NCBI GenBank assembly: GCA_043228905.1
Contig: JBHGNT010000014.1
Span: forward strand, 5,456,001-5,520,000
Source: Azolla caroliniana
Lineage: Eukaryota; Plantae; Polypodiophyta
Reading direction: 5' to 3'
Length of the DNA: 64,000 bases
The notes under the pieces were generated by a model. That model saw only the letters and a list, made by a program, of their open reading frames with translations. It was not told the origin of the DNA and did not search any database. A program made the position numbers and the translations under genes. Shown piece after piece: positions 6,386-63,941 of the stretch (position 1 is its first letter; every line of letters starts with the position of its first letter).

Positions 6386-7192
6386 TGTCGCGTTGTTACG
6401 CGCGTGCGTGGAGAAAGACGGGACCACGGGGGTCTTGGACTAAGGAGTGACGGAGCGTAGGAAGTCGTACTTCACCATTTCCGGGGCACCCCAGAAGCAC
6501 ACCGGAAGCAACCGAAGGGAGAGAGAGAAAGAGAGGGAGCACGCGCTTGACACCGACTCACGCGCACGCACGCGCACACACACACACACACACACACAGG
6601 CCGACTTGACTCACGCCCTTATGTACAGGAAACGCAGGAAAGGGGAAGCACCCGACACCAACAGAGACGCGAATATACACAGACCGACGCAAATGTATAT
6701 ATATATATATATAAGGAAGAATACATTCCCGGCTTCGAGCCAAACCAAGGTAGGTTACAGTAGTCGTCAGCTGCCAAGCCGCCGGTCGGGGAGCTCACGG
6801 GCTTGTCGCGCCGAGCGGGGTCTTGCGCAGGAGACGAGCTGAAGCAAACCCTAAGCGAACATGAAGGGGGAGAAGAAGAAGAAGAAGAAGAAGAAGAAGA
6901 AAAGGAATATAACTAACCCTAAATCTAACGGTATACCCTCTAACACAAAATGGGCAACCCTTTTCACAAGGGGTGCTCCCTTCCTTTTATAGAATAAGGA
7001 GAGGGATGCGTTACAATGTGGGATAAATCCCGACTTACATGGGATCGTCTGTCCTGACTTGACTACTCTTCGGCGCCATATAGGCGCCCTCGTTATTCAC
7101 ACTAAATGTACAAGGGTGAGCACACACACTGCACCCCGCCGATGTAGCCAATGTTTCCCGGTTTCCGCCTCTGGCCGAAATTCTTCACGACA
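6386..7192 (-). repeat. 3' LTR (about 807 bp) with (CA)n, (TA)n and (GAA)n microsatellites
   Basis: TGTCGCG...CACGACA; direct repeat of 10878-11671. Confidence 0.95.
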
Positions 7193-9538
7193 TCCGCCCC
7201 CACCTAACCGCACGTCCATCGGTACGTGCCAAATCCGGTGAAGAGTGAGAGATTTCGGCCACGAGAAAGTGGTCTTCCGTGATCCGCATCCCGGCTCGCT
7301 ACCTATTTGGTCCGTCAGCTTCGATTCTTCCTTCGCACTTACCTCCCCGTAGGCTCATTCGACCCGTCGATAGGTCCTCTACCGCGATCTCCGTAATACG
7401 CGTACTTCCGCTGGCCCTTGTTCGGCCGTATGGACGCCCCGCTCCCCGCCGTATGCCCGATGTCCTCTATTGAGGAACGCCCGTAGTGGCCCGCTTGGCC
7501 TCCGTTGACCATTCGTGTTGTCATGATTGCCATCCCATGTTGTTTCGCGTTGCCTTCGTCCTCTCGCCGCCACCTTCCTTCTCCATGGTCTTTCATCGCC
7601 GTGTCGGCTCGAACCGCCATGGTCTCCGGAATGGTGTGGAGGACCCTTTTCTGGCCTTCTACGCGCTGCCTCCGAACCGCGCAACCCACCCGCGCTTGCC
7701 TTTCCGCTCCGGCACCTCCATGTGCCACATACCCTCGTCCGTTGTTTGGCACTGCCTGTGCCGTACTCCAGTTCATTGCACGCATTGTCGGCCCGTTTCC
7801 CGGCCAGATCGCGCATCGCCGCTCACCCGCATACTGGTGTCCTCCGCACCCGAGGAACACCCCGTAGTAGCCCGCTTGGCCCTTCCCGTCTTCGTGCTGC
7901 TGCAATAGGTCCTGAGTCTTCTGCTTGCCGTCGTCCCTCGCCCCCACGAGCTTGACACCCCGGGCTCGCCGTGTCAGTCTTCGCTACTTTGACGAAGCTT
8001 CCGAGATCTACGAAGCGAGTGTGGAGGATCCTCCTCCGGCCTCTCTTGCCATCCCCTGACTCCGACCCTGTGCAGTCCACTAGGCACCCGTCACCTCGTT
8101 CCCGGCACCTCCCTTGTGCCGTCCTCCGCTTCCTTTGTTCGGCACCGCCTGCGCCGAACACCGTCCCGTAGTCACGCTTCGATCCGGCCTGCGATGGCCA
8201 CCTATGAGACTCTTGTTCCTCCCCAGGTGTGCCTTTCCGGCCAGACACACCTCCTCGTGTTTGCCGCGTAGTCGGGTCCCGTTTCCCGCCGCCACAAACC
8301 TTCTCTCTCAGTCTTATGTTGCCACGTTGGCCGATCTGCCGGAGTCTCTGGTTAAGTGTGGAGATCCCGTAGGACCGGACTTCCTTTCACCCACTGACCT
8401 TGCCGAAAGGTCCGATTCGGTTAGTAGCCGCCCCACCGGCCTGATACCTTCTTTCTCTGCTTCCGTCATCCGGTCACGTTCACCTGCCGCCACCGTCCCT
8501 TCCTATAGGACTCACGCCGGCTCTCGGGCCGACCGCCGGATCTGTGTGAGGATCTCCGTAGACCGCCCATCCGTAGCCCTTTTCCTTCGTCACCTTGCCG
8601 CCACCGTCAGTATCTTGGTCTTACATCGGCCGCATTGCCGACTGCCAAAGTCTCTAGAATCGGTGTGAAGGATCCTCCTTGGGCTTTCGATTTGTCTTCT
8701 TGACCCTGTCCCCGGTGTCCTTTTCCGCATGCTGAGAGGCCGTTTTGTTTCGCACCCTCTCCCGTGGTACCGACGTACCGTCTCCTCGGCCTCTCCTCGG
8801 CCTGCTCTCTTCCTCCCTCCCGGAATGGTCATCCGGGAGTCCGCTCCGCCCGGTTCTCATCCGAGTCCGTTCGTCCTTCTCCGTATTGCCGGGCTCTGTT
8901 CTCCTGTCGCCACTGATCTCTCCTATAGGACTCACGCCGGCACTCGGGCCGACAGCCAGATCGGTGTAAGGATCTCTGTAGGGCCGGTCTTCGTTCTCCT
9001 CTTCATCCCTTGTACTTCCCCCGAACTCGTCGTTGCTCTCCTTGCCGCGTTCCCGCCTCCATCTTCCATCATTTTCAGTCTTACGTTGCCCCGTCGGCCG
9101 AACAACCGAAGTCTCCGGATAAGATGTGACGTAACCGATTTCACAATGTCTTTCCGCAACTCGTCCGGGCCACCGCCCCTTTTAGTGGTGTCGGTGGATA
9201 GCATCCGCTCTGTGATCAATCAAGCCCCGCATCATCTTGATTCTCCAATGCCCGGAGTTTCGGCTCCGATGCCGATCTTGCCAGACTCGTTCCGAACCTT
9301 TGATCACCTTCCTTTCCAACTCCTGACCTTCGCCTGGTCGGTCTTTCTCCCCATGTAAAAGAGGGCGGCTCGCCCCGCACCCTCTCCCGTATCAGCACCT
9401 TTATGCCGAATCCGGCCCCAATCGAACAATCCACGACCGGATTACGCTCCATCCGAATCGGAATGCCGATCTTCTCGTACCGCATCCGTCCTCGGCCTCC
9501 TCGCAAGCCGTTTTCCATCCATCTTTGCTGGCATCATG

Positions 9539-10840
9539 CTAGGACTCCTCGGTGCCGCCATCCATCTCCTCGGTCTTACATGGGCATAAGAGCCCGAATG
9601 CCGAGTTCTTCGGAATCGGGTCCGTGGGCTTTCGTCCGCTCCTTCCCCGTATCGTCTCGCTGGTGACTCTTGGTCTTTCGCCACCACCTTCCTCCGCTAG
9701 GGACTCGCGTGGGCACTCAGGCCCGACTGCCATCGTCTCGGGAGCAAGTATGGGAAGACACAAACAATCGCCCGTCCGTTTTACGCCCTTGTCCGTAGCC
9801 ACCGACTCTTCGTGGTCGGCGATCGTCTTCTTACCGATCGCGCAAGCCCCGCCTGGGCTTGCATCTCCGATATCTGGGGTTTCGGGCTGACACGCCCGAA
9901 ACCGCCGGTCCCAACTATCCAGTTCCGCGATCTGTATCTCGGCCTCGTCCTTGGCCGTTCTAACTCCGCAAGTCGAGAGGGCGTTTTGTTCCGCACCCTC
10001 TCCTGTGGTACCGCCGTACCGATCTTCCACCGTCGCGTGGGGCAAGTCCGTCTCCTCAGTCCCGGCTTGCGGCCTTGATCTTTCCTCTTCCTCAAGCATC
10101 GCCTCGAGAGCTGCGTATGCCTCCGCAATCCGGGCCTCCACGCCGACCCTTGCCAACTCCCTTTTTCGTTCGGTCTCTTCCCGCTGTGATGGCACGCCGT
10201 CGCGCGCCTTCCTCTTAGCCTTCTCGGCTCGCTCATCGTCTAGTTGTTGGCACACCCTTCCAACCTTCGACCAATCCTCCGTAAGCCCATTCGCTCTGTC
10301 ATCGTCTTCGAGCTCCATCCCGATGGACTCCCGTTCCGCTCGGTCGATCGACCTGACGAACAATAGGACCTTGTCCGTCCCCACTGAACCTTGTTCCTGC
10401 TCCGGGAGCCGAGCAAGCCGTCGCTCAAACTCTCGGAACGCCTTGGTCGCGTCCCGGTGGGACTTTGCCGATGCTACCCACTGGTCAAAGTCGTGTCGTC
10501 CCCGGCTCTTCCGCCATCCTCCGTATGCCTTCAGGAGCGCCTCTTCGAAGGCCTCCCACGAACTATGAGCCTCACGAAGCTCCTTTACTTCCGCATGCAT
10601 CCGGACAGCTACGACCCGACAGAAGAACTCCAGCCTCAATGACTCGTCTACGCAACTCTCCTCCATTTCCACATTGTAGGTTTCCAAGTAAGATGGGACT
10701 TTGTCCCCGTTGAAACGACCGACTCTTTTGACCACTCGCTCATCCACTTGTTGCGCTGCTTCTCGCCTCATCACCACTCGTGCCGACTCCAACACCACTT
10801 TGGCCACCATCACCGCGAGGTCGTCGTCTTCCGACTCCAT
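9539..10840 (-). CDS. Gag-like protein (433 aa)
   Basis: Starts just after the PBS; RFNGDKVPSYLETY...SSWEAFEEALLKAY resembles a retrotransposon capsid N-terminal region. Confidence 0.75.
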   Translation of the reverse strand: MESEDDDLAVMVAKVVLESARVVMRREAAQQVDERVVKRVGRFNGDKVPSYLETYNVEMEESCVDESLRLEFFCRVVAVRMHAEVKELREAHSSWEAFEEALLKAYGGWRKSRGRHDFDQWVASAKSHRDATKAFREFERRLARLPEQEQGSVGTDKVLLFVRSIDRAERESIGMELEDDDRANGLTEDWSKVGRVCQQLDDERAEKAKRKARDGVPSQREETERKRELARVGVEARIAEAYAALEAMLEEEERSRPQAGTEETDLPHATVEDRYGGTTGEGAEQNALSTCGVRTAKDEAEIQIAELDSWDRRFRACQPETPDIGDASPGGACAIGKKTIADHEESVATDKGVKRTGDCLCLPILAPETMAVGPECPRESLAEEGGGERPRVTSETIRGRSGRKPTDPIPKNSAFGLLCPCKTEEMDGGTEES

Positions 10841-10855
10841 CCTCCCTTGCCGCCT

Positions 10856-10873
10856 TTCACGTCGGGTTCACCA
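10856..10873 (-). promoter_or_regulatory. PBS complementary to tRNA-Trp (18 nt)
   Basis: Plus strand TTCACGTCGGGTTCACCA equals the recalled 3' end of plant tRNA-Trp(CCA) plus CCA; 4 nt from the LTR. Confidence 0.85.
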
Positions 10874-10877
10874 AATA

Positions 10878-11671
10878 TGTCGCGTTGTTACGGACGTGCG
10901 TGGAGAAAGGCGGGACCACGGGGGTCTTGGACTAGGGAGTGACGGAGCGTAGGAAGTCGTACTTCACCGTTTCCGGGGCACCCAGAAGCACACTGGAAGC
11001 AACCAAAGGGAGAGAGAGAAAGAGAGGGAGCGCGCACTTGACACCGAATCACGCGCACGCACACACACACAGACACACACAGGCCGACTCGACTCACGCC
11101 CTTATGTACAGGAAACGTAGGAAAGGGGAAGCACCCGACACCAATAGAGACGCGAATATACACAGACCAACGCAACTGTATATATATATATATATATAAG
11201 GAAGAATACATTCCCGGTTTCGAGCCAAACCAAGGTAGGTTACAGTAGTTGTCAGCTGCCAAGCCGCCGATGGGGGAGCTCACGGGCTTGTCGCGCCGAG
11301 CGGGGTCTTGCGCAGGAGACGAGCTGAAGCAAACCCTAAGCAAACACGAAGGGGGAGAAGAAGAAGAAGAAGAAGAAGAAAAGAAATGTAACTAACCCTA
11401 AATCTAACGGTATACCCTCTAACGCAAAATGGGCAACCCTTTTCGCAAGGGGCGCTCCCTTCCTTTTATAGAACAAGGAGAGGGATGCGTTACAATATGG
11501 GATAAATCCCGACTTACATGGGATCGTCTGTCCTGACTTGACTACTCTTCGGCGCCATAAAGGCGCCCTCGTTATTCACACTAAATGTACAAGGGTGAGC
11601 ACACACGCTGCACCCCGCCGATGTAGCCAATGTTTCACGATTTCCGCCTCTGGCCGAAATTCTTCATGACA
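10878..11671 (-). repeat. 5' LTR (about 794 bp)
   Basis: Direct repeat of 6386-7192 with scattered substitutions. Confidence 0.95.
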
Positions 11672-13200
11672 CCGCGAAGGACCCGCGATGGATCGAAGCA
11701 ATGGACGAGGAGATGCAGGCACTACGGAAGAACGAGACGTGGGATCTCGTTCCCACCTCACCACACAAAAAGGCGATCGGATGCAGATGGATCTACAAGG
11801 TGAAGTATAACGCTGATGGCTCCGTAAACCGCTACAAAGCTTGACTCGTAGTGAAAGGATACGTTCAGACGCATGGCGTCGACTACGAAGAGACTTTTGC
11901 CTCGGTGGCAAAGATGACGACGGTGCGGACAGTAATTGCGATTGTCGCGGCGAAAGGGTGGCACCTCCATCAAATGGACGTCAAGAACGCCTTTCTACAA
12001 GGCGAATTAGAAGAGGTGTACATGATCCAACCACCCGGCTTCAACTCGAGCACCCATCCGAAAGTTGTTTGCCGACTCAAGAAGCCACTCTACGGCCTCA
12101 AGCTAGCACCGCGTGCTTGGCATTCGAAGATAACGCAATATCTTCATCAAATCGGCTTCCGTATGTCAAAATCGAACAACTCCCTCTACATACGAAGCGA
12201 TTCCACAAGTCCAATCGTCATCATTTTATATGTGGATGACCTAGTCATTGGAGGCGAGCATCTCGTCGAAATCAATAAAGTCAAATCCTGCCTTTCCGAC
12301 AAGTTCGAGATGACAGACATGAAGGAGCTCCACTACTTCCTCGGCATCGAGGTAATTCGGACTCCAACCGGAATCATGATCTCTCAACGGCACTACATCC
12401 TCAACTTGTTATACAAGTTCGGGAGGGCTGAGTGCAAATCCGTGTCAACCCCGCTTGATCGTAATCTCAAACTAGATGTGAACTCCGGCACCAAAGCGTG
12501 TGAGCCGACTCAGTATCGGCAACTCATCGGGAGTCTCATCAACCTCATGATCACACAACCCGATCTCAGTTATCCGGTCGGTCTCCTTAGCCAATTCATG
12601 CAAACACCGCGTGATACTCACTTGGATTGCGCTAAGCGAGTTCTACGCTACGTCAGTAGCACGATGGATTGCGGCATCCTCTACAAGACCGCGATGCCAA
12701 TACGACTCGAGGGGTACACAGACGCCGATTGGGCCGGCTACAAAGCTGATAGAAGATCAACCTCTGGATTTGTTTTCTCCCTCGGCAGCGGAGCAATATC
12801 CTGAAGTAGCAAGAAGCAGCCTACCATCGCTCTTTCGAGTACGGAGGCGGAATATAGGGGCACAGCCGTAGCTGCATGTGAAGCTGTATGGCTTAAGAGG
12901 ATTTTGAAGGATTTGGGCGTTCCCATCAAGGATCCGACTCCCCTTTACTGCAACAACATGAGCAGTATTTATCTGGCTCAGAACCCGGTGTTCCACGTGC
13001 GGACAAAGCACATCGAAGTTCATTATCACTTCATCTGAGAGCGCGTTCTGGATGGCGATGTCGACCTACAACACATTAGCACCAATCTTCAAACGGCCAA
13101 CATCTTCACTAAAGCCTTAGGAGCCGACAAGCTATGGCAATTCATGACCGATCTCGGATTGACGATCCCTGACTTGCCAACCTTGAGGGGGAGTACTGAA
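11672..13200 (+). pseudogene. copia B RT-RNase H (premature stops)
   Basis: ORF 11851-12804 (HQMDVKNAFLQG, LYVDDL, DADWAG); RNase H continues past a TGA. Confidence 0.9.
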
Positions 13201-13852: not shown

Positions 13853-14627
13853 GTCCAAACAACCTACCAAACCCAATTGGTGAGCTATGAAGTGCAGGCT
13901 CAGGCTACCGCCACCCTCATTAAGAAGTTGAAGGAGGACAAGCAAGATGTGGAGGACAAGACAAAGCTCGGAGTGTGCTGGATCCAGGCAATGGTGAAGG
14001 CATGGAAGGACTGGACAAAGAGGAATATCAATGACAACTCGGTGGGTTGGTGGACTCAATGGTCGCGACAAGCGGCGGAATTATAGGTCCTCCGGGCAGA
14101 TGCAGAAAACCGGAATAAGTCCGACGACAACTTTTACAAGATGGATGAAGAAAGTATTGTCACTATCTGGGAGGAGTTGGCAGATGACTTCTTTTCCTTG
14201 GCTGGAGCCCACCTCGAAGCCATCTGGAGGATGATTGAAAGACTTGATGATGATCAACTCGGAACACAACTCTAGTTTGAGCGATTCGAATTGGAGCGCC
14301 GACGGCTGGAAGAAGAAAAATAGACGACGGCAATAAATATAAGTGATGAGGAGTAGATTGCAGAATGAACCGCAACAGGAGGAGCTGTCAAATGAAGCCG
14401 AAGGAGAACCAAGGGAACCTAGTGCGGACTAGAACCAAGCGACCAGGTCGGAGCAACGAGCAGGAACCGGAAATAGAGAGAATGTTGTAACCGACATAAG
14501 AACGGAGATGCCTCAGCCAGAAGAAGTCAAAGAGCAACAACATGTGCAACAAGAGCAATAGTAGTAGAACGAAGAACCACTCAAAACCCTGGACTAGAGC
14601 ATATTGGACATACTCAACAAGGAGTGA
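13853..14627 (+). pseudogene. Extra-ORF C-terminal part (coiled coil, WWxxW domain, Q/E-rich tail)
   Basis: Homology to ORFs 48626-48941 and 48242-48517. Confidence 0.75.
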
Positions 14628-14639
14628 CAGAGCTAACCC

Positions 14640-14679
14640 GTGGGTTCAACGTACAATGTAATGTTCCATGGGCGTGCCA
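14640..14679 (+). promoter_or_regulatory. tRNA-Arg(UCU) 3'-end-like sequence at the PPT position (inverted second PBS)
   Basis: GTGGGTTCAA-N13-GTTCCATGGGCGTGCCA, then TG, then LTR start TGTTGG at 14682. Confidence 0.7.
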
Positions 14680-14681
14680 TG

Positions 14682-16813
14682 TGTTGGCTAGAGTATGGAG
14701 AACAAGTGGGGGACGAGTCGGGAATGGAAAATTAGTATTAGTAAATAATTAGTTTAATTATGATAGGAACGGATGGATCCAGAATAGTTGCACCGATCTG
14801 GATCCGGACCGATTCGTGACCGGTTGTCGGTATGACACCGGTTTGTAATAAGAATCAGATGCCTATAAAAGGATTCAGAAAGCAATGTAATGAAGGTGAA
14901 AGTAATATAAGTCTGAGTTTGAATTCAGTATTGTGTATCTTGTTTACTACCGTTTGTGCTTAATCTTCTATCTTACGCGTGTTAAGAAAATAGTGTTATA
15001 TCTCGATTCCGTAGCCGATCAGGTAATAGTTGGATCAAGATCATATCTGTGCCGGTTAACATCCTACCCGTAACCACCCCTTTGGTGAAGTGATCCAGAA
15101 GGGGAACAGAAATTAGTATTAGTAATTAATTAGTTTAATTATGATAGGAAAGAACAGATTCGGAATAGTTGCACCGATCCAGATCCAGACCGATTCGTAG
15201 CAGGTTGCCGGTATGACACTGGTTTGTAATCAGAACCGGATGCTAAGCAATGTAATGAAGGTGGAAGCAATATAAGTCTGAGTTGGAATTCAATATTGTG
15301 TATCTTGTTTACTACAGTCTGTGTTTAATCTTCTATCTTACGCGTGTTGAAAATAGTGTTATATTTCTGCACTTATTTATTGTTATTTGCACAGGACCTT
15401 GGTGGATTTTAGCGGTAATAGGCGAGAATCTTGAGATAATCAGAGATAGCAAGATGGTGGATGGGGACATGAGGAAGCTGGTTTTCTGTTTTTGTGATCA
15501 GGATGAGTGATGTTGGTGTGGGGGTTGAAGCAGATTATTATGAGAAGGTGAGGAATTTTTTTTCACTGATTTTTGGCTGTCAGTACAGGATCGCGGTAAT
15601 CGGTGTGATGGCAGGAGGGTCAACGAGATGCTCCAGATATGGGCATAGTTAAGAAGATAGTATGGTTCTCATAGGTTGTGGGATGATGGCAATGGGGTTT
15701 GAAGCATGTTTGTCATGACGAGAGGATGAGTGGTGTTGGTGTGAGGGTTGAAGAAGATCATGAGGGGATGAGGAATCATTTTTCACTTATTTTTTTGTTA
15801 TTTGCACAGGACATTGGTGGTATTCAACGCGATGGTCGATGTGGACTGAATGAAGCAATTTGTCTGTTTTTAAGAGTGATGATGGTGGGGGGGACCGAAG
15901 TAGATCATGAGGGTATGAGAATCACACTAGACACATTTTGTTGTTATGTGTACAGGACCTTGGTAGTAAGCGGCGAGATGGTTGATGCAGACCAAATGAA
16001 GCATAATTTTGTTTACTGTTAAGGTTGAGTGAAGATGGTGTGGGGATCGAAGTAGATGGTGTGAGGTGAGGAGGACATAGTTCATCTTATTTTATAGGGA
16101 GATTAATTACAAGTACATTTTCAATTTTCGTGGAGATGAAGGACATGGTCATCTTGATATGGGAGATGATAGATGGGGGGGGGGGGCTATCCAAGGCGGC
16201 CCATCACGTTTTACCCCAAGCATCAGGTGCATCATGGACTACTTTTGTGTCTTCAATTGCTCTGCACCAAACATTTGTCAAATAGCATCACCTAGTGGAT
16301 AGCCAAGTGATGGTGAACAACTTCAGTATATGCGGAACCAAATGCAAACATGGAGTTTTTAGACTACTAGCTAGGGTGGACAACCATGGTATGTTGACTA
16401 GGATTACCACTAAGATATGTAAAGATATGTATTCTCTTAGACTGTAGAAATTTTTTTATATGTTGAGAATGGGTCTTGTTGGCAAAGGCTAACAAAGTTT
16501 TCATGGATATAAATAGCCTTATCTTGCTAAATGCCATTGGTTATATTTGGTCCTTTTTATGATAGTTACTTGTGGAGTGGAAACTATTATGTACAATTTG
16601 TAGATTGCCTTTGGCATTGTTAATTTTAACACCAATGGAGTATAGTTTTTATGGAAAAAAAATAGTGTTATATTTCGATTCCGTAACCGATTAGGTAATA
16701 GTCGGATCAGGATCATATTTGTGCCAGTTAACATCCTACCCGTAACCACCTCTTTGGTGAAGTGATCCAAAAAGACATCCTGTGTTTGTGGCTAGTTCGG
16801 CCCAGGATAATCA
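14682..16813 (+). repeat. 3' LTR with internal tandem duplication and a 1.3-kb insertion
   Basis: 14727-15108 is repeated at 15109-15367 and resumes at 16659; ends GGATAATCA. Confidence 0.7.
15368..16658 (+). mobile_element. Unclassified insertion flanked by an 18-bp direct repeat (TPRT-like)
   Basis: AAAATAGTGTTATATTTC at 15350-15367 and 16659-16676; short A-run at the 3' end; degenerate internal repeats. Confidence 0.55.
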
Positions 16814-32358: not shown

Positions 32359-35300
32359 TGTCTGACTCAGGCTTCAACGTCCGCTTCGTTGTTCTACTTT
32401 GAATAAGAGTACGGATTGTGTCCCCTAAGTCGTCTATGAAATCAACTGGTTGTAGGTGCAAGTCGGACGACTCTTCGTTCGAGATACTGTTAGTTAATTC
32501 CTCTTCAACCTCCCGCCGAAAGTAGTCGAAAATCTCAGAATCCCTTAAATTGCTTTGTTGCACACGTCAGGTCTCTGATCTCGTGTGTGATCGACGATTC
32601 TCCACCGACTGATCCTCACTCTGTCGATCAGACAACATCCATTCTCCTTGTTTCTTCTATCTTAGACAGATGTCACCGGGCATGCCAAATTATCATTATG
32701 GAAAGGATGATTATCATAATGATTATTGCAAGATGGAGTGACAAGAACATTATGGATGGGATAGTCGGAATCGTTATGAGCGTGATTATTCACCTCGTTA
32801 CGACAAAAATGACCGTCAACAATATGACAAAAACCAACACGACGATAGGCATTATTATATCAATAGTTGACCTAATAATCGTTGTTTTTTGAAGACTTAG
32901 GAAAGATGGGATGGTTACAAACGTCCTAAAAATACTCAAAATTTCAGCATAATAATCGACATAGGGAAGAATTAGAGAGACATGACTTTTGACTGCCCCA
33001 ACAACAATTAGAGAAAGGTGAGTCAAGCGCTTCGAGCGAACCCATCTATTACATATGTTGAAAGGATGGTCATTATGCTAAGCAATGTCCAATGAAAGAC
33101 AAAGACAAATCTTCAACTGTAAACATGGTTACATCAGATGTTGAACACTCGCAACAAAGCAAAACAATTGGAATGGGACACGCAAGAAGCGATTTCGAAG
33201 GCCATCCAGGAATGGGTGGAAGAATCTAATAAAAGAAATGTTGATTAAATGCTTAAGGAGTACAAAGAAATACTCGACAAACCAATTACTTCCGCAATGA
33301 GTGCCAAATTACTAGAGTTGACACCAGTCTATGATTCCACATGGCAAATCCTAATAGATTGTCAAATTACATTACCTCTGCCGGGATTACTGGAATTAGT
33401 GCCTAGATTTACGGAAATAGTCGCAACCATCATCACAAAAGAAGTTGGAACATGTTGCCGTCAATTTTACGAAAGAAGGGACCGACAATCATGGATGAGC
33501 AGAGTCCCTAAGTAAAAGTAATCATACGAGACCAAGAGGGCTCGAACAACATCAACGATGATGGGTCAAGGGTCAACATCATAAGCAAAATGATATGTGA
33601 TTGTCCAAGAATCACTGAATGGGAAGTATTCCCATGTTGTCTATGAATGGTCGACACAAGCTCGGTTCGACCATTAGGGTTGATTCCACAGTTGGAAATA
33701 TTAGTTGGTGGTCATTCCTTTCAAATTTTGGCAGTCATTCTATTTCTAGATGCACTTGGAGTATATCCACTCTTATTTGGCTGACCATGGCTTCGAACTA
33801 TCAACATCAAGAAAAATTGGTAGAAAAATATCATCACCTTTCACAAGGGCAAGACAAAGATACGAGTTCCGACCCAAGAAAAGGTATTAAAAAAGAGGGA
33901 ATTGGTGCCTCTGTATGTAGAATCAATCAATATGATGGAAGGCTTAGAAGACAATGAAATTGATCAATATTTAGAGGAAAACCCCAAGATTATACCCTTG
34001 TTTGAAATCGATGTCGTCGAAATCATTAGCCCTTATCTCAACTATGAGGAGCTTGGCTCAGACGCTCAAATGCATCAATTGGATGCTAAGTCCTTAGTGG
34101 AGTTATGACATTAGCAAGAAGCAATGGAAAAAGAAATGTAAGTATCTCAATGGGTGAAGCCTTCAACATTGGAAGAACTGAATCTTGTAGAAAACGACAC
34201 TGAGCGGAAGACTGTTCTCATAGCTAAAGACATGTAGCCGAACAACAAAATAGAACTTGTAAAGTTATTACTCCAATATAAGGATGTTTTTGCATGGTCG
34301 TTCAAGAACATGAAAGGGCTCGATCCAACATTCTATTAGCATCAAATTCACCAGCACAAGGACGCCAAACCTATAGAACAATGAAGATATCGAATGAATC
34401 CTAATTAAGCCACCCAATTCAAAGAAGAAATCGAAAAGCTATTACAGGTCAGATTTATTCGACTAGTGAAAAAGGTCACCTGGCTTAATCCTATCGTCGT
34501 AGTACACAAAAAGAATGGTAAAATTAGAGTCTATGTTGACTACAGAAAGCTTACTGTGATGACAGTAACCAACACATTTCCTTTTCCATTTATGGATGTA
34601 GTGCTCGACATCGTCGCTGGCCATGCAGTTTATAACTTTCTCGAATCATGAATTTAACGGCTATAATCAGATTGGAATGCACTCAAATGACCAAGAGAAA
34701 ACAATATTCGTCACTGAATGGGGTGTATTTGTAGCAGTCATAATGATGTTCGGTCTCAAGACGGCATCAACTAGGATCCAAAGGATTATTGTAAAAATAT
34801 TTTCTTATTATATTTTGGCCTTTACGTAGGTATTCCTTCATGATTTCGATGTCTACAACCAAAACGTTGATCATCTGTAACATTTAATACTATTCTTAGA
34901 TAAGTATTGAACAACTCAGCTAAGCTTGAAGCTCTCGGCATGATCTACAGTTTCAACAAGTTTCGACACTACCTTCTCGATCGAAAATTTACATTTCATG
35001 TTGTTCATTCCACATTACTGTACCTAGTGTTGAAGCAATCCTTCACCAGGAAATTAGCAAGATGGAAGCTTCTTTTATAAGAGTTCGAGTTTGACAACGT
35101 ACATCATCTTGGGGTGCAACATGCAGTAGCTGACCATCTCAGATGAGGTAGCATGCATGAATCCAAAAACTTATTATATGCCAAAGAACAAGGCATGATT
35201 CATTATAACAACCTATTAGGGAGAAACAATATGTTGGGTTTTTATTACAGGAGTTGCGCTTAGAGTGCATCTTATGGCTATGAAGGGGGAGAAGGCCATG

Positions 35301-43331: not shown

Positions 43332-45223
43332 TGTCGCGAAGTTTCGCGCACGTGTGTTACATGGGCGGGACCACGGGGGTCTTGGACTAGGGAGTACTCA
43401 AGGGATAGAGAAGACCATAGGTTTGCTTTACAACAATCCTACTTCCCGACCCCTTCCCGAGCAAGGGCTTGTTGCCCTTTGTTTTGTGAGGACGGTGGCT
43501 CTCGTTGATCACGACTCGTCGACCTTTCGAGATCACCTCACAAGCCAAGTGATCAAATGGGTACAAGCAAGATGAGCATGCAAGATGAACGCACAAGGGG
43601 ACGATAACACAAACAAGAATGCCCATACATCTTTATGAGGAGGGAAGGTGCATGGGCAAGCCCGAACGCTCCCTCGTCACAAGACGACCGAACATACAAG
43701 GAAGACACAAACACACACACAAATGATGGTACGTCTTTATGAGGAGGAGGGGTGCATGGGCACGCCCGAAATGCTCCCTCGTCACAAGGCGGCCGAATGT
43801 ACAAGGAAGACCCAAACACACACACAAAATGCTTGTACGCCTTTATGAGGAGGAGACGTGCATGGGCAAGCCCGAACGCTCCCCCGTCACGAGACGACCG
43901 AACGTACAAGGAAGACACAAACACACGCACAAAATGCTCGTACGCCTTCATGAGGAGGAGAGGTGCATGAGCAAGCCCGAAACCGTCCCTCGTCACAAGA
44001 CGGCCGAACGTACAAGGAAGACACAAACACACGCACAAATGCTCGTACGTCTTTATGAGGAGGAGAGGTGCATGGGCATGCCCGAAAACCCTCCATCATC
44101 ACAAGACGGCCGAACGTACAAGGAAGACACAAACACACGCACAAATGCTCGTACGCCTTTATGAGGAGGAGAGGTCCATGGGCAAGCTCGAAATGGTCCC
44201 TCGTCACAAGATGGCCGAACGTACAAGGAAGACACAAACACACGCACAAATGCTCGTACGTCTTTATGAGGAGGAGAGGTGCATGGGCACGCCCGAAACG
44301 GTCCCTTGTCACAAGACGGCCGAACGTACAAGGAAGACACGAACAAAGAAAGAAGGAAAGAAAGAAACACGAATGATATCGGCCAAAGAAATAAATACCT
44401 GTTCGATTCCAACGCAAGAGGACCCTTTATAAAATAGGGTTTGATTACAATGGCAACTTATAGTTAACCACAAGCTGAATCAAAATATAAATACTAAATG
44501 CCCTAGAGACAAGAGAAAATCCAAAGACGGCGAAGATGAACACACGAGCACCACCAAAACGCCAATCCCAACGAACCACGACCACCCGAACGGCGAGCAC
44601 ACGGGCTCGCAATGACGAACGGGGCGGAGCAACGTCGAACCAACGAAGCTTGGACTCACGAGCACTTCGAGTGCCGACGCGAAGAAGACGAGGATGTGGC
44701 GATGGGGGGATGAAGGGGTATGAGATGAAGAGAAGTGGTGAATAAGAACATGAGGAGCTCCGAAGGAGAAAATGGTGATAGTCTCCTCCTCCCAAACGTC
44801 CTCTCGTATGAGCCCCCCTCAACCTCCTTTTATAGGAAAAAAAGGAAGGGGGGTCGCTAATTTCGTCTTTAATGCAAAAAGGAATAAAATTCCTTAAATC
44901 ACGCTGCATTGTAAGACTAGATTTGAACCATGCACCTCTAGCTAGAAGTCAATGTGACTATCCACTAGCCCATTAACTCTCTCTTATATAATATATGATT
45001 CTATCTCTATAAATTCTTAGCATGTCTCCCCTCTACCTTTTATCTCTCCTCTCTCTTACTTTTTACATGGGCTGCTATTCATCCTTTCCACCCTTTCTTT
45101 TCCCTTTTCTTTTTCATGAGCGCAATTAATCGCCTTTGTGTGCACACACATTCCACATGCACATTTTGACTCCCCCCCCCTTTCGCCGGCATTTCCCATT
45201 CTCGAGCATGCCACATCACGACA
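43332..45223 (-). repeat. 3' LTR (1892 bp)
   Basis: TGTCGCG...CACGACA; GGACCACGGGGGTCTTGGAC block shared with 6386-7192. Confidence 0.88.
43613..44345. repeat. Tandem array of about 7 x 105 bp inside the LTR
   Basis: CTTTATGAGGAGG-like anchor at 43631, 43735, 43841, 43946, 44051, 44157, 44262. Confidence 0.95.
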
Positions 45224-45282: not shown

Positions 45283-47727
45283 TCAATAGTTCATTTCCTC
45301 CTCCTCATTGACCCCGGAGCTTGTTGTTTGCTCGCCTTTATCTTCGTCAAGGTCATCGAGGTTTGGCTCCCTATCGTGTCGCTTTTTGAAGATTTTGATC
45401 CGCTTGCCTACTATTGGTAGTGCCAGGTTAGTCCCATCGAGTTCAACGAGATGGTAGGTAGCATTATCGTTTGCACTCATTACCACGTACGGCCCAAACC
45501 ATCGCTTTGCGAATTTCCGCATCGAGCTATGTTGATTGTCAAGATTGCTATCATATACAATCACCCAATCTCCTTCTTCGATCTTCCGAGGGCATAGTCG
45601 GTGCGTCTTGTCGAAACGGGCTTTGTTACTTAGCCTAGCCGCTTCTAACCTCTCCTTTGCCAACTCCAAGTCTTCGGGTCTTCTCTCAAGTTGTCTTATC
45701 CTTGTTGTTAGAAGCTCTTCTCGACTCATCTCGTTTTCCCATGGCATTGCTACCGATGATGCGATCGTGTTTTCAATGGGCATCACCGGCTTTTGTCCGT
45801 ACATGAGTTTAGCTGGCATGAACCCTGTAACTAAGCTATGAGTTGTTCTATCGGCCCACAAGGCATAAGGTAGTAACCAAGGCCAATTCCCGACTCGCCC
45901 ATCGCAAGCTCTTACAATGGCTTTTACAATGGGCTCGTGTCCGCGTTCTATCTTTCCATTAGCCTCCGGGTTATAAGCGGTCGTGAGAGAGAGCTTCACT
46001 CCAAGTCATTCAAAGAGCTATGTAGCTTCATGAGCATTCAACTCTCCTTTGTCGGCCACTATCGTTCCCACACATCCGTACCGGCAGATGATATCCTCAA
46101 GTAAGAATTTACACACCCCCGCTGTCATTTTGTTTGCTAAGGCTCGCCCTTCTACCTGGTTTGTTAGGTCTTCTCTTGCTAGCACCAAATATTTCATTTG
46201 GCCCACTCCCATCGGCATCGAAACCAAATCCACCATCCATTTGAGTGGCTAGGTCGGGTGCAACTCGTCCCTATGGCGTATGTTGGAGTGTATCTGGCAG
46301 CTTTCACACGTCCCCATGAAATGGGTGACATCCTTGTACATTCCCAGCCACCAATACTTCTCCTTTAACTTCTCGAATGTTGCCCACGTTCCTCTATGCC
46401 CCGCCCAAGGACTCTCGTGGAACTCAGACACCAATGTTGTCTTGTCCACTTCCTTTATGACCACTCGTTGTGGCGTCCCCGTCCTTCTCTTCGGGTGCCT
46501 CCAGAGGAATCCCCCTCGTAGGAAGTACTTGTACACTTTCTTTCGGACTCTTTATGCTTCCTCCTTCGACCATGAACTATTCACCGTCATTGAGCTTAAG
46601 AACTTGCCAATGTGTAGCCACTCCCCTTCGTATTCACTTTCGTTGAAGGTGTGGAGTACTCGCACATCTCGATCATCTATAGACGCTTGGGCCGTCTTAA
46701 AGAAGTCAAGAGCGACATCCTCATCTTCAGACACCATGTCGCTTTCTCCCTCGAATCTTGTCCTTGATAGCATATCTACCATGGTATTGTTCTTCCCTAA
46801 AATGTGGCGAATCTCTGGGTTCATTGATTTGATGTAAGCAATCCATCTTAGCATAGCTAGGTCAGGTTTTCTGACCCGATTAGGTAATCTTTATCCGCCT
46901 TCACTGCAGACACAATACCCCAAAGCTCATGTTTTACTTGGGCGTATCCTCGTTGTCGCTCGCTTAAGACCTTGGCTCCGAACCGGATGGCGTAGCGTGT
47001 ACCAACCTCTCCTTCTTGGTTGATGACCCATCCGATTCCTGTTGGACTCGTATCTACCATCACATAGATGGGCACCCCTTCCTTGTATACTGCTTTTTGT
47101 AAAGCTAATGCCGCTACCAACATTCATTTGAGCCTCTTCATTGCCTTTGTTCTTCCTCCCACTTGAACTTCCACCCCTTCTTGAGTAGCCCATACAAGGG
47201 ATCGGCTAGGTGAGCGTACTGTGGGATCCAGATGTGGTAGAATGCACAGGCACCAAGAAATCGCCTCGCCTCTATTTGTGATTTACATTCTTCCCTCATG
47301 TTTGTGATGGCGTTCACCTTTGCCGGGGATGGTTTCCGTCCGTACACCCCCGCACAAGTGTCCCACCACAAGAATCTCTGGTTGTCCGAATGCTGATTTC
47401 TCACCCGAGAAGGTCAAACGTGCATCTTCGAGTCTTTGTAGAACCTTCTCACAATCGGAGATGTGATATGCCACAAAATGTCTGCACCCATCCTCGTCCA
47501 AGGTTTCATCTTTCTCTGCTTCAGAGCACCCTTTTATGGGGATGTCATCGAGGAACGGCATGGTGATGTCGGGGATGCAATCTCTCAATACCTTGTTCAT
47601 TACATTTACCATGTGGGCTACAAAGTTAGTGCCTCCTTGTGGCAAGGTACACATTCGCACTACGCTGATAGGGGTCCGCATCGTCGTGATGTCCCTCCTC
47701 TCCACATCTAGTTCGACTATAGATCAC
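45283..47727 (-). pseudogene. gypsy H pol (RT-RH-INT), fragmented
   Basis: ORFs 47283-47705, 47138-47404, 46857-47123, 46552-46854, 46249-46536, 46018-46236, 45283-45999. Confidence 0.9.
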
Positions 47728-48187
47728 TGTTACTCCTAGGGTCGGACAAGAGCCTAATACAGGGTGTCCACTTAAGACACTTCACCAAAGGGTGGTACGG
47801 CAGAATGACTTACGGCACAACGCTTAATTAGACCTTAATCGATTACTTAAGAATACATCATTAACACGCGTAAGATATACAATAAGCACAGAACGGTAAT
47901 CAACACTGAAAGATTAAGGCAATAAGTTCTATTAATTATCCGCTCTCGATTACATTGTAACCGGGTCTTTATATAGGTCTCCGGTGCGAAATACAAAACG
48001 GTGCCAACCGACACCTTTTCGGGATCGGTCCGGATCCGGATCGGCATACCGATTCCGGTCCGTCCTTCCACATCTTCTCATATATTACTATATATTTTAA
48101 GGCTACTAATTACAACAGTTCCCGAATAAACTAATCCTTTCAAACTCTGGTTTGGATCTCCTTAAGCCTTCTTGCCGGCCGGTAACA
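47728..48187 (-). repeat. 3' LTR of G (460 bp, inner end inferred)
   Basis: 6-bp terminal inverted repeat TGTTAC...GTAACA; first 59 bp match 63942-64000; TATA-like CCTATATAAG on minus. Confidence 0.8.
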
Positions 48188-48189
48188 CA

Positions 48190-48228
48190 TGGCACGCCCG
48201 TGGGACAATACCTTGTACGTCGAACCCA
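48190..48228 (+). promoter_or_regulatory. Inverted second PBS (tRNA-Arg(UCU)) at the PPT position
   Basis: TGGCACGCCCGTGGGAC-N13-TCGAACCCA, 2 nt from the LTR. Confidence 0.75.
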
Positions 48229-48941
48229 TTATCCGACCCTTTTACGCTTCGTCCAAAATGTCCAGAATGCTTTGCTCCAAAATTTCCAATGGCTCTTCGG
48301 GAATCTGTTGTTGCTGATGTGGCTGCTGTTCCATTTCTGGTTGTGGCTGCTCCGTTTGTGCCTTCTCCGTTTGGGGCTGCGGCTCTGTTTGTTGCTCTGG
48401 CACCGGCGTTTCCTTCGTTGGTTCCTCCGTTGGAGTTGTCTCTAGCTGACTGACCCCGGCCTGGTCCCCGTCTGGTCCTACTACCGGAGACGGTTCCTCA
48501 TCACTAAGGTTGACCATTGCCGTCTTTCTCGCTTTTTCTTCCCGAAGCCGGGACCGCTCATAGCTCTCAAACTGGATTTGAGCCTCTAGCCGATCGTCGT
48601 CTAGTTGAGCTACGAGCTGTCGGACCTACACCAATTGTTCATCCGCTAGGGCTATGAAATCTTCAGCCAGCTCATCCCTTCTGGCGGTGAAGTCCTCCGA
48701 TGTCAGCATATAACAGTCGTCACCCTCCTTCCGCCGGTTTTCCACGTCCGCCCTGAGCAATTGGAGTTCCGCCGTATTCTGCGCCCATTTCGTCCACCAA
48801 TGCATAGAGCTGTCGTCAATCAAGCTTTTGGTCTTAGTGAGCCATGACCGAAGGATGCACTGGATCCGTTCGGCTCCCATCCGTGATTTGTTTTCTGCGG
48901 CTTGTCGCTTCTCTTTCAATTGCTTGATGATACGGATTGTG

Positions 48942-51900
48942 TGTTGGAAGCAATGTCGTCTGTGCGGAAGATCTTGAAGCACTCGATTCCTGTTTATTCC
49001 CTGTGTATGACAGAATGTAGGTCGTTGCACAGAGAGAGAGAGAGAGAGAGGCACAAAAGAACTTCTTATTTCATAAAGCAACAATACAACAACCAACCTC
49101 ACAAAGAGGTTACAAGGTCACTATATATAGTGACCGACTTAGGGCAACTACCCTTTATGCTAATTACATAAATGGCCAAAACGGGATGGTGTGAATACGT
49201 CCATTATACACATGTATTCGACACTCCCCCGTAATGGGCGTATACATGGGTTATCTAAGATTACAGGTATAGACTTAGGTTCTCGGACATATCAGCTTTG
49301 CACAGTAGTCGGCAGGATCCGAAGACAGAAGACCGAACTGGTCGGGTCGGAACAGTTGAAGCCGATCATTAAGGGGCTGATGTCGGTTGTCGGGAACCAT
49401 CCTGCTCTGTGTCCGGCTCTAACCGGACTGGTTTGTCGTTACGCCCATCTGATGCCGAAGAGACCGAAAACGGTCTGCCGAGAGACATTTGGTCATTCCA
49501 TCTGCGACATTATCGGTTGTGGATATTTTCTCTAGACCGATTTTCCCTGAAATGACGCAGTCCCGAACGAAGTGATATCGAACGTCGATATGTTTGGAGG
49601 CGTTGTGGTGAACCGGATTTTTCGACAAGGCAACAGCACCTTGACTGTCGCTGTAGACAACTGGAGCCGAGTCATGTTCGACTTGTCGAAACGTGTGCGC
49701 CAGCCGACCGAGCCACAAAGCTTCTTTTGCTGCGTCGGACGCAGCTACATATTCTGCTTCGGTCGTTGAGGTCGCTGTGCACTCCTGAAGTTTCGACTTC
49801 CACGAGATTGCTCCATTGCCGAATTTGAAGCAGTATCCGGTTGTTGATTTCCGACTGTCTATACAGCCGGCGAAGTCCGAGTCGGTGTAACCGACTACGC
49901 CTGAGGTTCGGTTCGGTCCGAAAAGAATGCCATGGTCTTTTGTGCCAGCCAGATATCTGAACACATGCTTGACTGCGTTCCAATGCGATCGGCCAGGATT
50001 GTGCATAAATCTGCTAACGACTCCTACGGCATGAGAGATGTCAGGCCGTGTCGCGACCATCAGGTACATAAGGGAGCCGACTGCCGGTGCATACGGTACC
50101 GACTTCATATCTTCCCCCTCCGAACCGGATGTCGGGCAGTCCCGCTGAGAGAGCCGAAGATTCATAGGGAGTGGGGTTGAAGCAGATTTGGCTGATTGCA
50201 TGTTGAAGCGTTCCAAGACACGTCCGATATAGTCGGTCTGAGACAAAAAAAGATGTCGTTTATCGCGATGCCGACTAATCTTCATGCCAAGGATGTGTCG
50301 TGCCGGACCGAGGTCCTTCATGGCAAACTTCAACCGCAGTTGCCGAACGAGATCGGCAAGTTCGCCCACGTGGCGTCCAGAAATTAGCATGTCGTCCACG
50401 TAAATGATGAGGAAGATGGGTGATCCATCTCGAGCTGTGTTGGTGAAGAGACAATGGTCCTCATCGCTTTTGGAGAAGCCGATTGATTGGATGAAGTCGT
50501 CGAACTTCTTGTACCATTGTCGCGGTGCCTGTTTGAGGCCGTATAGACTCTTCCTGAGTCGGCAGACTAGATGTTCTTGGCCAGTTGCCACGAAGCCTTT
50601 TGGCTACTCCATATAAATTTCCTCCTCGAGATCACCATGGAGGAAGGCTGTTTTGACATCTAGCTGAATCAGCTCCAAGTTGTCGGCTACCACGACGCCG
50701 AGCAGAAGACGAAGGGTTGTCATTTTCACCACTGGTGAAAAAATCTCGTCGAAGTCGACGCCATATTCTTGTCGGAAGCCCTTCGCAACTAATCTGGCCT
50801 TGTACTTTGGGGTGGTCGAATCAGACGTCTCTTTTAGTCGATAAACCCACTTCCAAGGAAGAGCACGTCGGTTCCTAGGTAATTCGACCAGATCCCAAGT
50901 CTTGTTTGCCCGGATGGAGTGCATTTCCGACTCCATCGCCAGATGCCAGGTGGCCGAATCGACAGATGTCGATGCTTCTTCATAAGACGTCGGTTCGCCG
51001 GCGTCGGTGAAGAAAATTCCAGGAGAATACCTCTCCGGAGGTTGCGACAGTCTCTCGGATCGTCGAGGTATGATTGGACTGGTCGCATCGGGTATCGAGG
51101 TCGGATGGTCCGAAACCGAATCATTCGGCTGTGCCGAGTCAGAGTTGTCCGAGTCGGTAGTATAAGGTTCAGCTACCCGTGAAGCTGACCGTGTGTTGAG
51201 AGCGGGGCCTTCTTGAAGGGTCGGCACATCGGAGAATGTTACCCTTCGGACTTCGATCGGTTTTTCGACTGATGGATTCATAGCCGACTCGTTGAACACA
51301 ACGTCCGAACTTCGAACGATTTGTCTGCGTTCGGGGTCCCAGAGTCGGTATCCCATTTCGCCGTCTGATCCATATCCAAGGAAAATGCATTTCCTGGACC
51401 GAGGTGCAAGTTTTCGGCGATCATCTTTCGGAATGAGGGCGTACGCCTCGCATCCGAAGATCCTCAGCTTGTCGTAATTCGGCTTGCTGCCGATCCATAG
51501 TTCCTGAGGAATTTGAAGTCCTAGAGGTCTACTTGGCGACATATTGATTATGTGTACTGCCGTGAGTAGAGCCTCTGCCCAGAAGCCATCCGACAGTCCG
51601 GAGTGTTGGAGCATGGAAACTATCCGTTCTTGGATTGTCCGATTCATGCGTTCGGCAATCCCGTTTTGCTCCGGACTGTGTGGTGCCGTAAATTCACGTC
51701 GGATGCCGCGTTGTCGGCAGAATTTGACGAATTCGTCGGATTTGAACTCTCCCCCATTATCGGTCCGAAGGCATTTCAGCTTTCGGTCGGTTTGATTTTC
51801 TACCATAGCGAGCCAATCGGTGAAGATCGAGAAGACACGATCTTTGGTGCGAATTGGATAAGCCCACACCTTTCGAGTCGAATCGTCAATAAAACTGACG

Positions 51901-54290
51901 AAGTAAGAGGCACCGCCTAGAGACTGATTCGGCATTGGGCCACAGACGTCCGAATGGACTAAATCGAGAGGTCTCGTCTCTTTTGGTGCTGATGTCGGGT
52001 GTGATGCGGCTACTTGTTTGCCATACTGGCAATGCTCGCAAAATTGATGGTCCGAGAAGGAGAGTTTGGGGATGTATCCGGCGCTAGATAGGTGCGTGAT
52101 GCCGGCCTTGCTGAGGTGTCCTAATCTTCGGTGCCATAATGATGACACAGGAATATCCACCAAAAACAGGTTACCCTCTCTGAGTGTAACATGTAACGGA
52201 TACAGTGAGTGTATCTTGGGTCCTCTAGCAAGTAGGAGGTTCCCCCTGTGGAGTGTCCACCCTCCCGAAGAAAAACCGGCACGAATGCCGTCTTCATCTA
52301 GTTGTCCGACTGAGATCAATGGCCTTGTGAGCTCGGGTACATGTCGGACATTGTGGAGTACAAGTGTAGAGCCACCTGCAAGGTTGAGCTCTACTGTGCC
52401 GATTCCGATGATGTCACAGTGTTGTGAGTTGCCGACCCGAACTGAGTCGGAGTGACGGATCGTATATTGCCGAAATTGGGACCGATGAGGAGTCACATGA
52501 AATGACGCGCCCGAATCCAAGAGCCATGTGCTCGATTCTTCAGTCGTGAGCAGAACTTCTGATCCGACTGGATTTTCGATTGATAGTATATTCGGGTCGT
52601 CCGGTAGTACATCAGCTGAGGAGCTGACGTAATTGATCTCCTCATGCCGGCCACTCTTCTTGTTGTTCTTGTTCTTGAGTGCGCGGCAGTCGGCTTTGAT
52701 GTGTCCGGGTTTCTTGCAATAGTTGCAGATTCGGTTATCCCGTGACTGGCTCCGTCTTCGCTGATTGTTCGGCGGTCGTGAGGAATCTCTTCCTCGTATG
52801 TTCGATCGGTCTGTCGAACCTTGTACTACGTAAGCGTCGTCTGTTGAGTCTTTGGCGAAAGACTTTCTCCGAGCTGCTTCGGTCAGGATTGCGCTCGTGA
52901 CTTCGGAGTATTTAACAGCCGTGGTTGACGCGTTGCACACGGTTGTGACGAAAGTTTCCCATGATGAGGGAAGGCTGCTCATGAGTATCATTGCTCTGAG
53001 TTCATCCTCGATTGCCGTCCCCTGAGACGAGATTTGGGATCTTATGCTTTCGTACTCATTGAGGTGTGCTTGAACCGAATCGGATTCTTTCATCCGCAAG
53101 TTGTAGAGGCGCCGGATCAGAAACATCTTCGTTGCGGCGACCTTCTTTTCGTAAGTGTCCGACAGTGTTTTCCACAGTTCGAATGCTGTCGTACACGATT
53201 GCACCGTAAAGTATACCGATTCCGATAGGTGCATCCGAATCGTGGCGCGGACGATTCTGTCCAGCTTTTGCCACTCAGTTGGTTTGTATCCTTCTAGAGG
53301 TTCTTCATTTTCGATGGGATCGATTTGCCCCTTGACTATGAGATAGTCCTGCATTTGCTCCTTCCAGAAGTTGAAGTTCGATCCATCGAACTTGCGTAGA
53401 CTCATTTCTGACGAGCCGGATGTTGATGCCATCAAATTCGGTTTCGGTTGACGAAGCTCGGTTCGGAGTTGACTACGAATCTTGTTGGAGTGCAGCCGGT
53501 TGGCTCACCCGATATCGTTCTAGTCGGATTTGAACCCGAGTCGGTTCGGCTTCGGAACTTGCTCGAATTGACTCCGGTAACTTGAGGGACAGAACCGACT
53601 GGTCTTCCTGAATGTTGCCGAGTCGGAGTGAGCCCGGTTCGCTTCGGATATATGTGCCGAATACCGATTATTGAAACCGATTATCTGGACCGATTCGGCT
53701 TCGGGTGACTGCAGCGACGAGAGAGACGGATCCGAGTGATCCTCCCGAATGTCGATCAGCCAGATGAAGCACGAATTTGGGTTGTTGTCAAAGTTGCACA
53801 AGGGGATTTCACCTCGAGCGGTTACGATCACAAGGGACAGAGTACAACCTGCTGGCTTACTCCAAGCAAAGATGATCTAACGCGATGAGATGCAAACATG
53901 GTTTTTCTTCTTCTTCTCTCTTCTTCGAATGACGCAGGAAACCGAATGCAGAGACGACGGCCGACAGCGGATTGAAGGACCGACTACTGTGCAGGCTCTG
54001 ATACCAGATGTTGGAAGCAATGTCGTCTGTGCGGAAGATCTTGAAGCACTCGATTCCTGTTTATTCCCTGTGTATGACAGAATGTAGGTCGTTGCACAGA
54101 GAGAGAGAGAGAGAGAGGCACAAAAGAACTTCTTATTTCATAAAGCAACAATACAACAACCAACCTCACAAAGAGGTTACAAGGTCACTATATATAGTGA
54201 CCGACTTAGGGCAACTACCCTTTATGCTAATTACATAAATGGCCAAAACGGGATGGTGTGAATACGTCCATTATACACATGTATTCGACA
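48942..54290 (-). mobile_element. Full-length young Ty1/copia element I (5349 bp), TSD TTGTG
   Basis: 282-bp LTRs 48942-49223 and 54009-54290 identical by eye; PBS GGCTCTGATACCA at 53994-54006; PPT GGGGGAG beside 49223. Confidence 0.98.
49419..53435 (-). pseudogene. copia I gag-pol with a single in-frame TAG at 50604-50606
   Basis: 943-aa and 390-aa ORFs in the same frame: EEIYME*PKGFV. Confidence 0.93.
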
Positions 54291-63887: not shown

Positions 63888-63923
63888 CCATTCCGCCGCT
63901 GTTCACTGCGATTGTGCAGGAAT

Positions 63924-63934
63924 TGTGGTCGCCA
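63924..63934 (-). promoter_or_regulatory. Canonical PBS, tRNA-Arg(UCG)-like
   Basis: TGGCGACCACA, 7 nt after the 5' LTR; matches the recalled tRNA end ...TGTGGTCGCCA. Confidence 0.75.
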
Positions 63935-63941
63935 AAAACTA

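Follow-up and report, generated by a model that had tools for sequence, protein, structure and literature searches.

A conserved tRNA-Arg(UCU)-like block at the polypurine tract position of Ty3/gypsy elements, a candidate second primer-binding site

Two Ty3/gypsy copies in the window (the whole stretch of 64,000 nucleotides that we have analyzed) carry a conserved 45-nt block just before their 3' LTR. Judged from its sequence, this block reproduces the last third of tRNA-Arg(UCU) in sense orientation, CCA included. The feature is real and conserved, known replication schemes do not explain it, and the mechanism that we infer, and favour with some reserve, is that a host tRNA would prime plus-strand synthesis at the block in place of the polypurine tract (PPT). 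In the textbook account, retroviruses and LTR retrotransposons alike start their second strand from a PPT.

Structure of the two copies

Copy G reads as a single Ty3/gypsy element with a PBS-like site, gag-pol, an extra ORF, the block and an LTR; both element ends are visible in this copy alone. Copy H is a fragment. The features of both copies are the following.

47728-48187, minus: 3' LTR of G, 460 bp, TGTTAC...GTAACA, sitting in the RT of another Gypsy element
48184-48228, minus: 45-nt block of G, whose complement reads as a split primer-binding site for tRNA-Arg(UCU)
48242-56700, minus: extra ORF of G, in sense orientation 3' of pol, interrupted by stop codons and by an inserted Copia element (48942-54290)
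56800-63902, minus: decayed gag-PR-RT-RH-INT of G, from Pfam on broken frames
63924-63941, minus: 7-nt T-rich spacer of G and PBS-like site starting TGGCGACCAC (TGG start)
63942-64000, minus: last 59 nt of the 5' LTR of G, the remainder lying beyond the window
13902-14627, plus: decayed 3' part of the extra ORF of H, stop codon at 14625-14627
14641-14685, plus: 45-nt block of H, from the alignment with G
14641-14649, plus: T-arm match in the H block
14650-14662, plus: 13-nt insert in the H block
14663-14679, plus: 17-mer ending in CCA
14680-14681, plus: TG spacer, followed by the first 4 nt of the LTR, which end the block (TGTTGG start at 14682)
14682-16813, plus: 3' LTR of H, in two pieces (14682-15098 and 16769-16813), broken by internal duplications and an insertion

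The visible part of the 5' LTR of G agrees with the terminal part of the 3' LTR (47728-47786) at 56 of 59 positions, in direct orientation. The PBS-like site behind it may be a match to tRNA-Arg(UCG); pattern scans of viral contigs for the tRNA of this site gave only tRNA-Asp genes, or nothing. Two insertions interrupt the pol region, one in RT (about 59826-60455) that resembles a solo LTR, the other before INT. A stem-loop is found behind the 5' PBS, at 63885-63924. It is best on antisense DNA and is not significant (z -1.68, equalled by 13 of 200 shuffles); a short PBS followed by a hairpin at this end would resemble the layout of the 3' block.

The extra ORF has about 970 amino acids in relatives and matches no Pfam family. 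In an intact relative of 972 amino acids, P0003, it spans the Copia split, runs from just behind the integrase to the block and ends like both window copies. This continuity, together with the order of the element, places the block in sense orientation between the ORF stop and the 3' LTR. We also observe coiled-coil-like and acidic stretches in P0003, and a weak Atlas lead (0.76) to plant clusters bearing Transposase_28; all Atlas leads for the extra ORF are below 0.9. The extra ORF of H is identical to that of G at 252 of 451 positions within the conserved part.

The LTR of H contains two duplications: 14729-15004 resembles 15110-15367, and 14984-15100 resembles 16656-16772. The first-pass annotation had pieced this LTR together at about 460 bp. 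We obtain 462 bp, against 460 bp in G, a length which is only a reconstruction because of these internal duplications.

Conservation of the block

The same annotation had described in H the extra-ORF stop (ILDILNKE*, 14627), a 17-mer, a TG and an LTR starting with TGTTGG, and all of them are present. The 17-mer, GTTCCATGGGCGTGCCA (14663-14679, plus), corresponds to the 3'-terminal 17-mer of the tRNA and differs from the 17-mer of G (48206-48190, minus) solely by C>T at 14665 and 14669, as had been noticed. The 2-nt spacer and the one-base gap relative to the tRNA are also the same.

The LTR and ORF had been described as clearly diverged, with an identity peak expected at the motif, and this is what the alignment of H and G gives. 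The block is identical at 40 of 45 positions, while its flanks agree in 602 of 1075 ungapped columns (56%), a difference with a Fisher p of 3e-6 for a 45-nt window picked post hoc. It is the top-scoring 45-column window of the whole alignment; the runner-up reaches 35. Identity is high in every part: 8/9 in the T-arm match, 11/13 in the insert, 5/7 in the 3' side of the T-stem, 10/10 in the acceptor strand with CCA, 2/2 in the spacer and 4/4 in the LTR start. The insert is as well conserved as the parts that match the tRNA (23/26), and the 13 nt immediately 5' of the block agree at only 3 positions. Such conservation points to selection on the block.

The conserved region is also longer than had been recognized. 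It begins 22 nt farther 5', at 14641, with TGGGTTCRA, which matches the T-stem and T-loop of the tRNA.

tRNA identity, pairing and folding

A pattern made of the upstream 9-mer, one N and the 17-mer was scanned in metagenome contigs, where it has at least 122 loci. For the 122 loci listed, ARAGORN calls tRNA-Arg(UCU) in 103 cases and tRNA-Trp in 10, with no call in 9. According to these calls, the block corresponds to the T-stem, T-loop and 3' acceptor strand of tRNA-Arg(UCU), plus CCA. The tRNA genes compared come from plant-associated metagenomes, are other than the host's and were retrieved by a pattern derived from the motif itself. In tRNAs, CCA is added post-transcriptionally. One tRNA base is absent from the block, at the junction of the T-stem and the acceptor strand. 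Reverse transcriptase stops at m1A58 of a primer tRNA, 18 nt from its 3' end. The 13-nt insert is placed exactly 18 nt from the mature tRNA 3' end, and 18 bases is also the length of the HIV-1 PBS given in PMC13332604.

On the antisense strand, the site in G is complementary to the tRNA end, CCA included, at 17 of 18 positions, with one tRNA base unpaired, and lies 2 nt from the LTR. The predicted duplex between the last 30 nt of the tRNA and the antisense block has -50.0 kcal/mol in G and -42.8 kcal/mol in H, with RNA parameters. Among 1684 tiles covering both strands of the window, the best two have -50.0 and -46.8, the third -36.2, and the mean is -21.3. Since the tRNA was retrieved via the motif, these energies show fit and are no impartial selection from all tRNAs. 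Pairing is weakened by the missing base and by the two C>T changes of H, which is a decayed copy.

By itself the block folds no better than shuffled sequences (z from -0.64 to +1.39 in eight folds, RNA or DNA). We rejected a self-folded tRNA-like structure, as the conserved block has no 5' acceptor strand and folds no better than shuffles. An interaction between the block and the 5' PBS of the same RNA was also considered and rejected: read from the sequence, just about 4 bases could pair. A window-wide search for the pattern, with 3 mismatches allowed, gives 3 matches against 1.05 expected, which is weak evidence alone. We found no tRNA genes in the window, which is a dense nest of transposable elements.

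Occurrence in public contigs

Contigs from 4 of 21 listed public runs were mapped to 47700-48941. They are short and show only the block and its edges. Depth reaches 95-187 thousand at 48162-48203; the next LTR bin has 3-20 thousand, and 48246-48287 has 16-30 thousand. A bin inside the LTR, 48036-48077, is deeper than the block, so depth alone fails to single out the block; loose ends do. With this reference, 46, 60, 82 and 48 contigs have loose ends at 48228, while 30 and 39 contigs, in two runs, have them at 48184. Agreement beyond the block edges is 0.44-0.55, as expected for many unlike flanks around one shared block.

A second mapping, to 48180-48232, covered runs of four organism labels from three studies, with 392, 714, 336 and 296 contigs per run. 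The same two edges are found in each run, with loose ends in 30-43 contigs at 48184 and in 46-84 contigs at 48228. In all four runs the block also continues without interruption into the LTR start. Dozens of contigs per run diverging exactly at both edges indicate a lineage feature and no chance junction. The first-pass annotation had come to the same view from the two copies, and it is borne out by the identity peak, the shared contig edges, the unbroken extra ORF and the matching LTRs of G. No substitution or indel is listed at 2% in 48180-48232, but single contigs differ at 1-9 places, so this is no proof of invariance; the blank table may be due to an end filter acting on a very short reference.

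A subfamily with loose ends at 48224 is present in all four runs (10-23 contigs each). Its T-arm match seems to be longer by one base; this would extend an element-internal stem, yet put a bulge into the tRNA pairing.

Leaf and plant metagenomes are among the datasets with matches, and the nearest Atlas clusters, as leads only, belong to Streptophyta; this is indirect evidence of a plant host. The LTR with the end of the extra ORF, compared with a genome index, has no near genome; its three short matches fall in a low-complexity part of the ORF and none at the block. Viral contigs, scanned by pattern and by protein, yielded no copy of the element. An 18-mer has 17 matches in prokaryote genomes, a number close to chance expectation, and we dropped them. 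A palindromic stretch (CCGGATCCGG-type) in the U3 of the LTR, at 48036-48077 and 14790-14815, is conserved in G and H and coincides with the deepest contig bin; it is a possible promoter or packaging element.

The polypurine tract position

No polypurine tract was found before the 3' LTR of G and H. Both have 8 purines in the last 15 nt, no G run and the end CCATG. As controls we used two other Gypsy-type elements and the Copia element, all of which have a GGGGG run before the 3' LTR. The purines per 15 nt are 11 in the 6386-11675 element, 10 in the host of G (about 43.3-47.7 kb) and 9 in Copia. This contrast with 8/15 is modest and leaves room for a G-rich, non-canonical self-primer.

Classification and the RT thumb helix

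The full-length relatives P0012 and P0016 have the order gag-PR-RT-RH-INT, the Ty3/gypsy order that Pfam also gives in the broken frames of G. No chromodomain was detected after the integrase of P0012 and P0016 at E 0.05, and P0012, P0016 and P0011 have no RNase_H/RVT_3 match corresponding to the additional archaeal-type RNase H which marks Tat. Close relatives (64-91% identity) are metagenome records only; named Malus Gypsy polyproteins have 35-36%. Seven close relatives form one clade, with support 100/100 in an RT-RH tree of 15 rows that includes no lineage references, and this clade stands apart from two Malus polyproteins whose lineage is unstated.

Athila is characterized by a tRNA-Asp/Asn PBS and a conserved PPT-LTR junction; our elements have no PPT, and their site is unlike the Athila PBS given in 10.64898/2026.03.20.713144. 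Phygy and Selgy have a short internal region without an extra ORF and a tRNA-Trp or tRNA-Ala PBS, which does not agree with an extra ORF of about 970 amino acids. The elements would represent a Ty3/gypsy lineage outside the chromoviruses, and in the parts of PMC6317226 covered neither Athila, Tat, Phygy nor Selgy, as tabulated, agrees with it.

In RNase H the residues D, E, D, D are kept at the expected positions, as judged by eye. The thumb helix of RT is peculiar. It reads G-Q-I-R-W-H-S-R-M in the window (59276-59812, minus) and in P0009-P0025, against G294-M-I-N297-Y298-Y-R300 in Ty3 RT; the usual form elsewhere is G-x-x-x-Y/F-Y-R-R-F. In Ty3 the residues of this helix touch both primer and template. 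In Ty3 RT, N297 and R300 contact RNA 2'-OH groups, and the thumb has been proposed as a PPT sensor (PMC5371799, in part). We surveyed 182 proteins, 116 of which align over the helix. WH is found in 16 of the 19 proteins with at least 60% identity (the others have LH, LH and WL) and in 1 of the 97 below 60%. A connection between the change in the helix and the loss of the PPT is possible. A fragment of a further relative of the RT-RH of G (66-78% identity) lies at 33927-35145, plus, with no 3' end visible.

Comparison with known systems

The elements resemble yeast Ty3 in their domain order and in the site, putatively of tRNA type, after the 5' LTR (PMC5371799), and the RT of a close relative matches Ty3 RT 4ol8 at 7e-71. 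Ty1 and Ty3 are also known to have tRNA-binding sites in separate parts, with the T-arm engaged, which would be a likeness to the block. According to the parts of the same source covered, however, the Ty3 plus strand starts from a purine tract of the element RNA and the tRNA-binding segments are all on sense RNA. The block, unlike these segments, is a tRNA-sense sequence at the PPT position which could pair with the tRNA only as minus strand.

With members of the plant non-chromoviruses (Athila, Phygy, Selgy and Tat; Neumann et al. 2019, PMC6317226) the elements share a long extra ORF 3' of pol and, in two full-length relatives, the absence of a chromodomain and of an extra RNase H; with Athila they share the T-rich spacer before the 5' PBS. 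On the other hand, Athila has tRNA-Asp/Asn primers and a conserved PPT junction. Primers of tRNA-Arg occur in TatIII, Ogre and Retand, and no group without a PPT is described in the parts of PMC6317226 covered.

Drosophila gypsy has a second tRNA-related site near the 3' LTR, with both its 5' and 3' sites related to tRNA-Lys2 (PMC1635307, in part). Unlike the block, its 3' site complements the anticodon and T stems on sense RNA; unlike G and H, gypsy has a PPT, and its 3' site is dispensable for cDNA synthesis. Helenus TRIMs (Kojima 2024, PMC10886601, in part) are LTR retrotransposons which also carry a tRNA-derived sequence. They differ from G in being non-autonomous and in having both PBS and PPT, and from the block in that their tRNA-like sequence is inside the LTR and is likely a Pol III promoter. 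These nearest cases, Ty1 included, all have a PPT. An 'inverted PBS' in PMC7207207 is no precedent: it concerns PCR primers only. Our literature search, with most subscription papers outside it, yielded no PPT-less, doubly tRNA-primed element.

Proposed mechanism and alternatives

The block can pair with the tRNA only as minus strand, with its 3' end 2 nt from the LTR, so we read it as a second PBS. Minus-strand DNA would carry this site two bases from the LTR, and the 3' end of a tRNA paired there would point into the LTR, where a PPT primer ends. Minus-strand synthesis would begin at the 5' PBS as usual, and RNase H would then clear the RNA. A second tRNA would anneal through its last 18 nt, with one base bulged; its T-stem and T-loop would probably pair too, with the 13-nt insert looped out. 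RT would extend from CCA into the LTR, and removal of the tRNA by RNase H would leave 2 extra nt outside the LTR, which integrase would trim. Trimming of a 2-nt extension by integrase is established for retroviral-type integration. The site itself likely goes back to a primer tRNA that RT copied, switching templates at the m1A58 stop.

Shape or a protein contact seems to matter too, to judge from the insert being as conserved as the tRNA-matching parts, from the missing base and from the subfamily variant. These three points also keep alive another reading, possible though rather unlikely, in which the element's own RNA would be the primer: a tRNA-like, G-rich piece ending in CCA would survive RNase H as an unusual PPT, perhaps aided by a small hairpin or an altered RT, and the likeness to tRNA would be a relic. 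Besides the insert, this would account for a 3-bp TAC/GTA stem which, read from the alignment, is untouched by both insert changes, for the longer internal stem of the subfamily, for the 8/15 purines before the LTR and for a thumb helix that is lineage-specific. Nevertheless, nothing would oblige such a primer to keep full identity with a host tRNA, down to the CCA, in families whose flanks cannot be aligned. Its predicted self-folding is no better than that of shuffles, and the PPTs known so far, in the parts of PMC5371799 covered, are purine tracts.

The block might also have no priming role, as a tRNA mimic for RT or Gag, an aid to packaging or dimerisation, or a target of 3' tRNA fragments on antisense transcripts, with the plus strand primed otherwise. 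Secondary tRNA-binding sites without priming do exist, such as the 3' PBS of Drosophila gypsy (PMC1635307, in part). We consider this quite improbable, given that G and H both keep CCA exactly 2 nt from the LTR and that contigs of all four runs read from the block into the LTR start without a break; no other PPT adjoins the LTR, and the known secondary sites complement the tRNA on sense RNA, which the block does not. A very doubtful suggestion is that antisense RNA is the template and the block an ordinary minus-strand PBS for it. In its favour, the other strand reads LTR-CA, a 2-nt spacer and a 17-nt PBS, a textbook-like arrangement and longer than the 5' site. Against this, gag-pol and the extra ORF are encoded on the opposite strand, and behind the 5' LTR comes a PBS-like site whose T-rich spacer is of the Athila type (10.64898/2026.03.20.713144, in part). 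The opposite end has no purine tract either (9/15 purines), so antisense replication would need a second priming of the tRNA type anyway. Hardly any credence can be given to a chance junction with the LTR and PBS of another element in opposite orientation. The window is indeed densely nested with elements, but the LTRs of G match in direct orientation (56/59), and the arrangement recurs in H despite 56% flank identity and in hundreds of contigs.

Priming of the plus strand by a host tRNA, the reading that we prefer, may be part of a wider picture, for and against which we see about equal grounds: a lineage of autonomous plant LTR retrotransposons without a PPT, in which host tRNAs would prime both strands, the second on a split T-arm site, with a matching change in the RT thumb. 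If true, it would show that in a replication cycle found in nature a DNA template can be primed by a tRNA, which also sets the left end for integrase, and that a large, successful family does without PPT priming. This would explain why tools which require a PPT miss such elements in annotation. It would also provide a second target for 3' tRNA fragments and a natural experiment on what guides RT and RNase H in selecting the plus-strand primer.

Other elements in the window

The Copia element that splits G (48942-54290, minus) is very young: its 282-bp LTRs are 100% identical and its pol is nearly intact, with one stop near 50604. The element at 6386-11675, minus, is Gag-only, with 814-bp LTRs which are 93.6% alike, a PBS after a TATT spacer and a G-rich PPT. 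Its PBS presumably corresponds to tRNA-Trp, as in Phygy. It also has a short palindromic stretch with TGGCACG about 35 nt before the 3' LTR. Finally, a tandem array of units of about 105 bp, with 83-89% identity, is found at 43587-44345, apparently in an LTR of the Gypsy element hosting G.
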